Shown one piece after another: positions 40,186 through 42,309 of a stretch of DNA of 44,448 nucleotides. Both the position numbers and the translations under genes were made by a program. Below the pieces are notes generated by a model. It saw only the letters and a list, made by a program, of their open reading frames with translations. It made no database searches and was not told the origin of the DNA. The DNA comes from a virus. The stretch is taken from UHGV virus genome UHGV-1376603; one strand, given 5' to 3'. Position 1 is the first letter of the stretch; each line of letters begins with the position of its first letter.

Positions 40186-40610
40186 AACGCACTCCATTTT
40201 ACCGCAGGCCCGGCAAAGTCGGGAAATTCTCCGGCCTTCGCGAGCGCGTGATCTGGATGATTCAGACGCGCGGCCGCCCTGTAACCGGTAGCGAAATAGC
40301 GGAGAAGTTCGGCGTGACGCTTGTCGAATTTAACCGCGTTGCGAACGGTATTACCAGGGGAGAAGGCCGCATTGCACAGCTGATCGCATCGGAAACCTGG
40401 CTCAACGAGGACGGCATCTGCGATCGCACCTTTGACCTGATCACAAGGCCAAAGGTCATTACCCCGCAGGGTAAAACGCGCCTGTTCACTAAGCGCTCGA
40501 TAGCTCAGGCCGCCTCTGGCAACCGCCAGAAATGTATTGATAAAGCGGCCCGGCGCCGCCGGCTTATCGCATCTGGCCTCTATATCGATGAAATGGAGTC
40601 AGTCCTATGA
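40182..40610 (+). CDS. Hypothetical basic protein (142 aa)
   Basis: ORF with ATGA coupling to both neighbours. Confidence 0.4.
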   Translation: MKRTPFYRRPGKVGKFSGLRERVIWMIQTRGRPVTGSEIAEKFGVTLVEFNRVANGITRGEGRIAQLIASETWLNEDGICDRTFDLITRPKVITPQGKTRLFTKRSIAQAASGNRQKCIDKAARRRRLIASGLYIDEMESVL

Positions 40611-41263
40611 CCCGCTACTCACTTATCTATTCTGACCCGGCCTGGTCTTACGGGAACACGATCAGCAACGGTGCCGCCGTAGATCACTACCCCACCATGA
40701 GCCTGCTCGATATGAAGCGGCTCCCGGTATGGGAGCTCGCCGCGGATAACGCTGTTCTAGCGATGTGGTACACCGGCACCCACAACCAGGAGGCGATCGA
40801 GCTGGCCGAGGCCTGGGGCTTTACGGTGCGCACTATGAAGGGCTTCACCTGGGTAAAGTTGAATCAGTTGGCCGAGTTGCGAATTACCAAGGCTCTGGCA
40901 GAGGGAGAGATCGCAGATTTTTACGACTTCCTCGCCCTGCTTAATGCCGAGACGCGCATGAACGGCGGCAACCACACCCGCGCCAATACCGAAGACGTGC
41001 TGATCGCCACCCGCGGCGCCGGGCTGGAACGCAAGCACGCCGGCATTAAGCAGGTGGTCTACAGCCCCCTCGGCGCTCACAGCGAGAAACCGTGGGAAGT
41101 TCGCCACCGCCTGGAGTTGCTCTACGGCGACGTGCCGCGGATTGAGTTATTCAGCCGCAGCGCTGCGCCAGGCTGGAGCCATTGGGGAAACCAATGCGCC
41201 ACCGCTTCCGTTGAGCTGATCCCTGGATGCGCCATCGACGTTGTGAAGACGGAGGCAGCATGA
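40607..41263 (+). CDS. MT-A70 family N6-adenine DNA methyltransferase
   Basis: Block IYSDPAWSY is the DPPW catalytic motif of MT-A70/Dam-like phage methylases. Confidence 0.7.
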   Translation: MTRYSLIYSDPAWSYGNTISNGAAVDHYPTMSLLDMKRLPVWELAADNAVLAMWYTGTHNQEAIELAEAWGFTVRTMKGFTWVKLNQLAELRITKALAEGEIADFYDFLALLNAETRMNGGNHTRANTEDVLIATRGAGLERKHAGIKQVVYSPLGAHSEKPWEVRHRLELLYGDVPRIELFSRSAAPGWSHWGNQCATASVELIPGCAIDVVKTEAA

Positions 41264-42309
41264 GCGCGGCAGCTTACTACAACGAGATCGACCCATTCGC
41301 GGCGCAGTGGCTGCGTAACCTCATAGCCGCCGGGCATATCGCCCCGGGCGAAGTTGACGAACGGAGTATTGAAGATGTCACACCTGACGACCTCAGAGGA
41401 TTTACCCAGTGCCACTTTTTCGCCGGTATCGGCGTCTGGTCCCATTCCCTCCGCCTCGCCGGATGGCCTGACGATCGCCCGGTCTGGACTGGCTCCTGCC
41501 CGTGCCAGCCTTTCAGCGCGGCAGGTAAGGGCGATGGATTTGCTGACGAGCGGCACCTATGGCCAGCCTTCAACCACCTTATCAGCGAGCGCAGGCCTCA
41601 GCATGTCTTTGGCGAACAGGTTGCAGCGGGTAGTGCAAACGCTTGGTTCGACCTTGTACAGGCAGACCTGGAAGGACTGGGATACGCCTTCGGGCTTGTG
41701 CCGTTTACGTCAGCGGGCATCGGCGCGCCGCACATCAGAGAGCGGGCCTACTGGGTGGCCAACGCCGACAGCCTCATCAGTGACCGGCGCTGGAACGTCC
41801 GGGCGCCAGGGCGGCATGACTATTCAAACGGCGGCGATGATGTCAGGCTGGGTAACACCAACGTCACGCGACTGGAAAGACTCGGCGGGAATGACGGCGC
41901 AGCGGGACGGGAAAGAGCGACTGGACCAACTGCCGCGTCAGGCGTTCATGACGGGCTGGCCAACGCCACAGGTCAACTACATCACCAATGCAACGACGGT
42001 GCAAATGAGTGCGGACGGCAGGGAGACACCGAACAAAATCGGATGGGCGGCGAGCCTCTGCGGCCCCTTGAGGTTAACGGTTTTTGGCGAGATGCGGACT
42101 GGCTTCTTTGTCGAGATGGCAAATGGCGTCCAGTTGAACCCGGCACATTCCCGCTGGTTGATGGGGCTGCCGCACGCATGGGACGAGTCGAGCCCGGGGT
42201 GGCAAGAGTGGCAAGCAGCAACCGCGTCGGCCGCCTGAAGGGTTACGGCAACGCCATAAACGCACAGGCAGCTGCGGCTTTCATTCGAGCTTATATGGGG
42301 GTCGCATGA
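41260..42309 (+). CDS. DNA cytosine-5 methyltransferase. The conserved motifs and GC3 signal switch frame twice (frame 1 to frame 2 near 41800, back near 42230), so this is a possible pseudogene or recoded gene.
   Basis: Frame 1 holds motif I FAGIGVW, motif IV PCQPFS and motif VIII PHIRERAYWV at the 5' end, and motif X GYGNAINAQAAAAFI at the 3' end. Frame 2 (41354..42238) holds GW-TP repeats (SGWVTPTSRDWKD, TGWPTPQ) and a near-consensus motif IX LNPAHSRWLMGLPHAWDE. Third-codon-position GC in the middle segment is about 72-74% in frame 2 versus 42-53% in frame 1. The frame-1 5' end is about 69%. Confidence 0.6.
   Translation: MSAAAYYNEIDPFAAQWLRNLIAAGHIAPGEVDERSIEDVTPDDLRGFTQCHFFAGIGVWSHSLRLAGWPDDRPVWTGSCPCQPFSAAGKGDGFADERHLWPAFNHLISERRPQHVFGEQVAAGSANAWFDLVQADLEGLGYAFGLVPFTSAGIGAPHIRERAYWVANADSLISDRRWNVRAPGRHDYSNGGDDVRLGNTNVTRLERLGGNDGAAGRERATGPTAASGVHDGLANATGQLHHQCNDGANECGRQGDTEQNRMGGEPLRPLEVNGFWRDADWLLCRDGKWRPVEPGTFPLVDGAAARMGRVEPGVARVASSNRVGRLKGYGNAINAQAAAAFIRAYMGVA

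Follow-up and report, generated by a model that had tools for sequence, protein, structure and literature searches.

A conserved pair of nested same-strand phage genes that probably encodes the two chains of one C5-cytosine DNA methyltransferase

Introduction

Known C5-cytosine DNA methyltransferases (C5-MTases) require a target-recognition domain and motif IX (PMC3404938). In the case of M.EcoHK31I (target YGGCCR), the beta chain, which carries motif IX, is encoded wholly inside the alpha gene in another frame, the alpha chain carries motifs I to VIII and X, and both chains are required for activity (PMC2836561; PMC3404938). M.AquI is also a two-subunit C5-MTase, with motifs I to VIII on the large subunit and a part of the variable region plus motif IX on the small subunit (PMC3404938). 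Here we describe a locus of the UHGV virus genome UHGV-1376603, located between positions 41260 and 42309 of the analysed stretch of 44,448 nucleotides (nt), hereafter referred to as the window. The original prediction, made from the sequence, had noted at this locus a C5-MTase gene with its conserved motifs in two different frames, and had listed frameshifting or recoding, decay, sequencing error and phase variation as possible explanations. Our analysis points instead to a conserved nested same-strand gene pair, alpha and beta, together encoding one C5-MTase, and we put the probability of this reading at roughly 0.7.

As in M.EcoHK31I, the second chain is nested in the gene of the first in another frame, with motif IX on beta and motifs I to VIII and X on alpha. 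In M.EcoHK31I, however, the predicted recognition domain is located in alpha and beta provides only motif IX, whereas in the present locus beta contains both motif IX and the entire recognition domain, the nested gene extends over 82% of alpha, and the DNA encoding the recognition domain is read in the alpha frame as a neutral linker. Unlike M.EcoHK31I, the present family is phage-borne and apparently orphan, without an adjacent restriction enzyme gene. The recognition-domain homology in beta makes this locus a variant, and not a copy, of the M.EcoHK31I type, to which it is likened here by description. The split lies within or near the variable region as in M.AquI, but the small subunit of M.AquI also carries motif X, which is here on the catalytic chain, and one gene is here fully nested in the other. 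The locus is thus most likely a new and very widespread two-chain variant of the M.EcoHK31I type.

Results

Organization of the nested open reading frames

Two open reading frames (ORFs) are arranged on the same strand as follows.

41260..42309, plus strand: alpha gene, frame 0, 349 amino acids (aa; from MSAAAYYNEID), with catalytic core, unconstrained linker, C-box and motif X
41375..42238, plus strand: beta gene, +1 frame, 287 aa, wholly inside alpha, with N-terminal tail (N-tail), N-terminal core (N-core), GWxTP modules and motif IX

The overlap is 864 nt or 287 codons, covering 82% of the alpha gene. The ORF list shows an open +1 frame between 41354 and 42238; the original prediction was correct on this open span but not on its start, since the conserved start is ATG at 41375 and not TTG at 41354. 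The composition that it had reported was reproduced: the G+C content (GC) at third codon positions over 41860..42180 is 0.75 in the +1 frame (72-74% as first reported) versus 0.52 in frame 0 (42-53%), and 0.69 (69%) at the 5' end of frame 0 (41260..41500). The total GC of the gene at 41260-42309 is 61.6% versus 53.1% for the whole window, consistent with pressure against AT-rich stop codons in two frames. Alpha matches phrog_363 over its full length, its homologues being annotated in frame 0, and beta matches phrog_1008 and phrog_31772, PHROG families labelled 'DNA methyltransferase' that differ from the family of alpha.

The catalytic chain, alpha

In the feature lists and below, omega (the ratio of nonsynonymous to synonymous change) was obtained from OLGenie-style pair counts by effect in both frames, in which pairs are non-independent and multiple hits are uncorrected; the values are rough, and the contrasts among them are large. 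The parts of alpha are as follows.

41260..41760, plus strand: catalytic core, by hhalign to M.HhaI and PDB profile search (omega alpha 0.07-0.24)
41275-41292, plus strand: motif II-like YYNEID
41416-41442, plus strand: motif I, FFAGIGVWS, aligned to FAGLGG of M.HhaI
41494-41526, plus strand: motif IV, SCPCQPFSAAG
41605-41622, plus strand: motif VI, VFGEQV
41722-41760, plus strand: motif VIII, GAPHIRERAYWVA
41764..42075, plus strand: linker, aa 169-272, stop-free, unconstrained in amino-acid sequence (omega alpha 1.03)
42076..42165, plus strand: C-box, NGFWRDADWLLCRDGKWRPVEPGTFPLVDG, conserved in frame 0 and lying over the RLT-to-motif-IX segment of beta, doubly constrained
42223..42294, plus strand: motif X region, RVGRLKGYGNAINAQAAAAFIRAY, mostly 3' of the beta stop codon

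By hhalign (probability 97.6), the part of M.HhaI that matches alpha is residues 8-177, with motifs I to VIII; PCQPFS (including the catalytic Cys), GEQV and HIRERAYW of alpha fall on residues 72-176, and the Pfam match of alpha to PF00145 is confined to aa 77-173 (expectation value, E, 4e-13). The positions of motifs IV, VI and VIII are invariant among 79 homologues. At the C-terminus (RLKGYGNAI), motif X RLKGYGNAINAQAAAAF aligns to LRIIGNGVVPQQAAAAL of ShiLan gp70 (BLASTP, E 0.001), YGNA is invariant among homologues, and the motif X region shows the third-position variability typical of frame 0 (entropy 1.3-1.5). Alpha therefore carries motifs I, IV, VI, VIII and X of a C5-MTase but, on this polypeptide, no recognition domain or motif IX; neither was recognised between motifs VIII and X by Pfam or by the M.HhaI alignment. 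In their place is the linker, 16% hydrophobic and enriched in G, R, A, D and N, which differs in length between relatives through in-frame insertions and deletions (indels) and in which frame-0 codon position 1 is the most variable.

The motif II-like (YYNEID) and motif III-like (DERSIEDV) segments precede motif I (FFAGIG) within 41275-41442, whereas the order in M.HhaI is I, II, III. This swapped order was placed by HMMER with insignificant sub-scores, and the S-adenosylmethionine (AdoMet)-binding region of alpha may have undergone a local permutation.

The nested chain, beta

The start signal and the parts of beta are as follows (pLDDT, predicted local distance difference test).

41363..41366, plus strand: GGAG Shine-Dalgarno (SD) sequence for beta, 8 nt before ATG 41375, formed from frame-0 codons Arg35 (CGG) and Ser36 (AGT)
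41375..41503, plus strand: N-tail, aa 1-43, S/P/A-rich, near-neutral (omega beta 0.85), AlphaFold2 pLDDT about 50
41504..41752, plus strand: N-core, aa 44-126, with ASLSARQ..LLTSGT, helix LSMSLANRLQ.. and hairpin GSTLYRQTWKDWDTPSG..RASARRTS
41753..42064, plus strand: GWxTP modules, aa 127-230, putative target-recognition domain
41753-41779, plus strand: GWPTPTASS, first GWxTP module
41846-41881, plus strand: GWVTPTSRDWKD, second GWxTP module (GWVTP)
41954-41980, plus strand: GWPTPQVNY, third GWxTP module
42065..42184, plus strand: PLRLTVFGEM...QLNPAHSRWLMGLPHAWD, end of the recognition domain and motif IX, QLNPAHSRWLMGLPHAWD being at 42131-42184
42175..42222, plus strand: 48-nt clade-specific insertion, read as RMGRVEPGVARVASSN in alpha and as the tail ESSPGWQEWQAAT... 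in beta

The start of beta is written into the synonymous codons of alpha. The frame-0 codon for Arg35 is CGG or AGG in 70/81 sequences (3/81 and 7/81 at the control residues Arg19 and Arg65), that for Ser36 is AGY in 73/81 (6/81 at the control Ser61), and that for Asp39 is GAT in 78/81 (9-34/81 at other Asp). These skewed choices spell out GGAG, the 8-nt spacer and the ATG of the +1 frame. Each of the 83 loci offers an ATG in the +1 frame preceded at 5-16 nt by an SD; the lineages without the 41375-type ATG have an ATG four codons downstream, with GAGGA before it. The 41375-type ATG is the start of most predicted beta proteins in a library of 1.84 billion proteins. Judging from these signals, beta would be translated independently of alpha.

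In phage N15 gene 58 (L099:1498-2493), the beta ORF is closed upstream and begins later, at MTNDTSG opposite DDERHLW of alpha, and the N-tail is gone. This later start suggests that the N-tail may be dispensable. The N-core overlies motifs IV to VIII of alpha, forming a doubly constrained stretch, and is kept in the product of the 'g50 internal gene' of Paenibacillus phage Redbud. The number of GWxTP modules varies among relatives, and a motif-IX-like sequence, LNPAHSRWLMGLP, follows in the +1 frame.

The 48-nt insertion, present in 59% of aligned sequences, is missing from BcepC6B, PHB09, Golestan and EBPR podovirus 2. It is confined to the Klebsiella/Salmonella clade, and resembles a local duplication in alpha (RMGRVEPGVARVASSN ahead of RVGRLKG). 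In beta it swaps the tail DxCAPTAxxSxRK of other clades for ESSPGWQEWQAATASAA.

Comparison with a single-frame relative

Gp70 of Mycobacterium phage ShiLan (389 aa) is a single-frame relative, its own +1 frame being full of stops. Its residues 65-159 match the alpha core (hhalign E 1.5e-18), residues 200-359, including three LLPTPxAxDGxGG repeats and LAPAFSEWMMGWPAGW, match beta aa 127-284 (hhalign E 2.7e-5), and residues 351-385 match the alpha C-terminus with motif X (BLASTP E 0.001). The motif IX of beta is also paired with LAPAFSEWMMGWPAGW by BLASTP (E 0.001). ShiLan gp70 is thus collinear with the locus in the frame order 0, +1, 0, in agreement with the original assignment, which gave frame 0 the catalytic motifs together with motif X, and the +1 frame the recognition segment and motif IX. 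This collinear match places the recognition domain and motif IX of this enzyme clade in the +1 ORF. All parts lie in one frame in both ShiLan gp70 and M.HhaI, but are here split over two, and ShiLan gp70 has no counterpart to the beta N-core (LTWK hairpin) or the alpha C-box.

The same collinearity, and the change of frame in mid-gene seen in the third-position GC and substitution patterns, would also be explained by a single chain whose translation shifts twice in a programmed manner, by +1 once motif VIII has been read and by -1 ahead of motif X, restoring the canonical order of motifs I to VIII, recognition domain, IX and X. We consider this improbable, because neither junction is conserved. 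The +1 shift had been placed near 41800-41830, but 41795-41835 is among the most variable stretches of the gene (per-base entropy mostly 1-1.9); the -1 shift had been placed near 42200-42240, but 42195-42222 lies inside the clade-specific insertion. Besides, the SD and ATG of beta are located 390 nt ahead of the supposed shift, and the roughly 125 codons of beta preceding that junction are both open and under selection (omega beta 0.43 at aa 44-126); the N-core in this part has no counterpart in ShiLan gp70. Frame 0 remains stop-free through the middle of the gene, which a shifting ribosome does not need, and the alpha C-box (42076-42165) is under frame-0 selection, notwithstanding that a doubly shifted ribosome would read it in +1; WLLCRDGKWR (42100-42129) in particular is under purifying selection in frame 0. 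When chimeric 0/+1/0 proteins were examined with Pfam, no match to the C-terminal part of PF00145 was added. We know of no precedent for two efficient shifts in one gene. As a candidate, the programmed frameshift gene was rejected on its variable or clade-specific junctions, the open zero frame and the separate start of the alternative frame.

Selection in both frames

Synonymous resampling of the +1 frame gave an expectation of about 4.5 frame-0 stops per sequence in the middle segment, but none was found in 75/75 homologues; the annotated frame does stay open, as originally stated. Conversely, resampling of frame 0 gave an expectation of 2.2-3.1 +1-frame stops in the 5' overlap, but 10 of the 11 homologues had none and the remaining one had a single +1-frame stop, at the start of the region; the probability of finding none is about 0.01-0.07 per sequence. 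The openness of both frames exceeds chance and is selected.

Along beta, omega alpha and omega beta were 0.07 and 0.85 for aa 1-43, 0.24 and 0.43 for aa 44-126 (N-core), 1.03 and 0.16 for aa 127-230 (over the alpha linker), and 0.40 and 0.32 for aa 231-270 (over the alpha C-box). Purifying selection is therefore complementary along the gene, with both frames constrained in two segments. As to the annotated frame, the original prediction had named end-to-end alignment of homologues, with conservation through the middle segment, as an observation that would speak against a division between frames: the homologues do align end to end, but their amino-acid sequence is not conserved through the middle (omega about 1.0).

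The codon-position entropies, computed over 81 sequences, change in parallel: the frame-0 pattern at 41260-41500, depression at all three positions at 41500-41770, the +1 pattern at 41770-42070, low values at all three positions at 42070-42160 with the frame-0 pattern at WLLCRDGKWR, and again the frame-0 pattern at 42220-42309. At conserved 4-fold sites of frame 0, the entropy is 1.55 before the +1 start, 1.29 at codons 39-80, 0.68 at codons 81-130, 0.40 at codons 131-170, 0.43 in the C-box and 1.58 after the +1 stop. For alpha as a whole, 4-fold sites show an entropy of 1.57 where singly coded versus 0.52 where doubly constrained (Mann-Whitney p 7.7e-6). The stretch 42072-42186 alone retains 78-87% DNA identity in otherwise unrelated phages because it is doubly constrained.

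Conservation of the two-frame layout

Neither frame is interrupted in more than 90 homologous loci, which belong to phages of Proteobacteria, cyanobacteria and Paenibacillus. These include the closest phages, Klebsiella ST13-OXA48phi12.5, Klebsiella phage 2 LV-2017 and Salmonella epsilon15, the alpha genes of which differ by in-frame indels (349 to 389 aa), and also Burkholderia BcepC6B, Bordetella PHB09, E. coli Kagunavirus Golestan and EBPR podovirus 2. In an IMG/VR set of 80 loci with 52-79% protein identity, 74 could be scored by motif anchor; nearly all of these have 235-368 open codons in the +1 frame, and the +2 frame contains 10-26 stops per gene. More distant two-frame cases were found in Rhodobacter, Xanthomonas, Erwinia, Aeromonas, Komagataeibacter and cyanobacterial phages and, at lower GC, in phage N15 gene 58 (52%), Vibrio phage Marilyn (51%) and Paenibacillus phage Redbud (47%). 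In Redbud, a Firmicute phage with this nested layout (L104:1067-2119 and 1251-1955), the nested ORF is annotated as 'g50 internal gene', and hhalign shows homology between its product and beta (E 8e-12).

Searches with beta gave more than 6,800 predicted-protein clusters at 90% identity and 16,719 representatives at 50% clustering (E up to 0.001). Beta-like sequences occur in 217 phage records, all, among the matches listed, under a methyltransferase-type or unnamed (hypothetical) gene. Among 240 close beta matches and the top 150 representatives, no in-frame fusion of alpha and beta was found except for indel artefacts.

This distribution bears on the proposals that the second frame is left by decay, by indel sequencing errors or by a phase-variable tract, and is otherwise an accident of high GC. 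The gene is indeed GC-rich, with fewer stop codons to be expected, and a few relatives have frame-breaking indels. However, the layout is found again in independent loci whose GC is as low as 47-52%; public assemblies of independent origin contain a protein (P0241) with 100% identity to alpha; the +2 frame is full of stops, and the openness goes beyond the codon-resampling nulls. As for the homopolymer errors and the phase variation at a G-run that the original prediction had considered, the longest homopolymer within the gene is 5 bases, and the length differences between relatives are multiples of three. We give these proposals next to no weight.

A second group of two-frame C5-MTases was noticed in phiRSP (L100, Ralstonia), SOVA965 (L101, Stenotrophomonas), phiGT1 (L102:1130-1867, Sulfitobacter) and phPA-G (L105:1098-1826, Pseudomonas). 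In this group alpha, of about 220-245 aa, follows the canonical order of motifs but has hardly any sequence between VIII and X, and the overlapping ORF contains LPTP-type segments and an EWMMGxPxGW motif IX.

Discussion

Like the chains of M.EcoHK31I, alpha and beta probably form a two-chain enzyme. Alpha would supply the AdoMet-binding and catalytic core (motifs I, IV, VI and VIII), the C-box and motif X, its linker of about 100 residues being constrained solely by freedom from stop codons. Beta, initiated independently from its own GGAG and ATG, would supply the N-core, the variable set of GWxTP modules as target-recognition domain, and motif IX. By analogy with M.EcoHK31I, both chains would be produced, would bind each other and would methylate DNA only as a complex; the contact is perhaps made between the alpha C-box and the beta N-core. 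As the variable modules of beta lie over a sequence-indifferent linker of alpha, they could change or recombine without harm to the catalytic chain.

The main competing explanation is that alpha alone is a working methyltransferase, with the C-box as a minimal recognition element, and that beta is a separate overprinted protein such as a DNA-binding regulator or an anti-defence factor. All the catalytic motifs and motif X of alpha are under purifying selection, as would be expected in that case, and beta alone is predicted to be largely unstructured and has no Pfam or PDB sequence match. On the other hand, the modules and C-terminus of beta have their homologues in the recognition domain and motif IX that ShiLan gp70 carries in frame, the very parts that alpha is without; the short alphas of phiRSP, SOVA965, phiGT1 and phPA-G have no DNA-recognising part between motifs VIII and X; and known C5-MTases need both parts (PMC3404938). 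We therefore regard the self-sufficient alpha as unlikely, while giving it more credit than any other alternative to the two-chain enzyme.

Several results weigh against the two-chain enzyme. Besides the roughness of the omega estimates, searches of beta against Pfam, NCBIfam and PDB sequences gave no match, the PDB sequence and profile searches being empty at E up to 10, and the only local pairing of the beta profile with M.HhaI by hhalign was that of motif IX KLHPRECARVMGYPDSYK, not significant at E 0.47. AlphaFold2 gave beta alone a pLDDT of 58, with confidence only at aa 71-120 and 261-283 (N-core 78-85), and Foldseek with this model returned a meaningless result. The AlphaFold2 model of alpha, based on an alignment limited to sequences at least 81% identical, had a pLDDT of 30 and lends no structural support to a complex. 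Finally, 4 of about 85 loci, and phage PMG1 in addition, are broken in one chain by indels or a nonsense codon: in one (L012) frame 0 is interrupted by a nonsense codon within the linker, three (L051, L054 and L072) have single-base indels swapping the frames, that of L051 fusing beta in frame to motif X, and in PMG1 (L005) a 4-nt GATC duplication splits alpha. These copies are read as decayed or mis-sequenced, yet the layout is not inviolable.

The balance tips slightly toward a wider claim, that the large family of phage 'DNA cytosine methyltransferase' genes, including those of N15, epsilon15, BcepC6B, Kagunaviruses and many prophages, consists of largely unrecognised heterodimers with a whole specificity subunit overprinted in +1 on the catalytic gene. 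In thousands of database entries only one gene of the pair is annotated, its partner being dropped or called 'hypothetical' or 'Mte8-like'. The K1ind2 record annotates both coding sequences (CDS), as 'C-specific methylase' and 'Mte8-like protein'; in the records of PMG1 and phPA-G the annotated CDS is the beta-type ORF, called hypothetical protein in phPA-G, with no cytosine-methylase (alpha) CDS over it; and the phiKX1 record has neither properly annotated. No published description of the alpha/beta arrangement was found in a search that was short on subscription journals and REBASE.

If both chains are made and work together, the overlap of 864 nt would be among the longest conserved same-strand gene overlaps of phages, and the locus a clear example of two subunits of one enzyme on one DNA stretch. 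Prediction of specificity from the annotated alpha would then examine a neutral linker and not the real recognition domain, and specificity could change by module swapping within a single compact, co-inherited locus. The alpha/beta family is a natural model for the partition of constraint between frames in overprinting. The Rz/Rz1 spanin of lambda is another case of a gene embedded in the +1 frame of another, with the products forming subunits of one complex, but it serves an unrelated function and shows no homology to alpha or beta, and Rz1 has a length of only about 60 codons.

Neighbouring genes

The ATG of alpha overlaps the stop codon of the upstream gene (ATGA, 41260-41263), an overlap by which the two methyltransferase genes would be translationally coupled. 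This upstream gene (40607-41263, 218 aa) contains a DPAW motif, and its copies in relatives are annotated as adenine DNA methyltransferase. The gene downstream of alpha begins on the alpha stop codon in the same manner (ATGA, 42306-42309).

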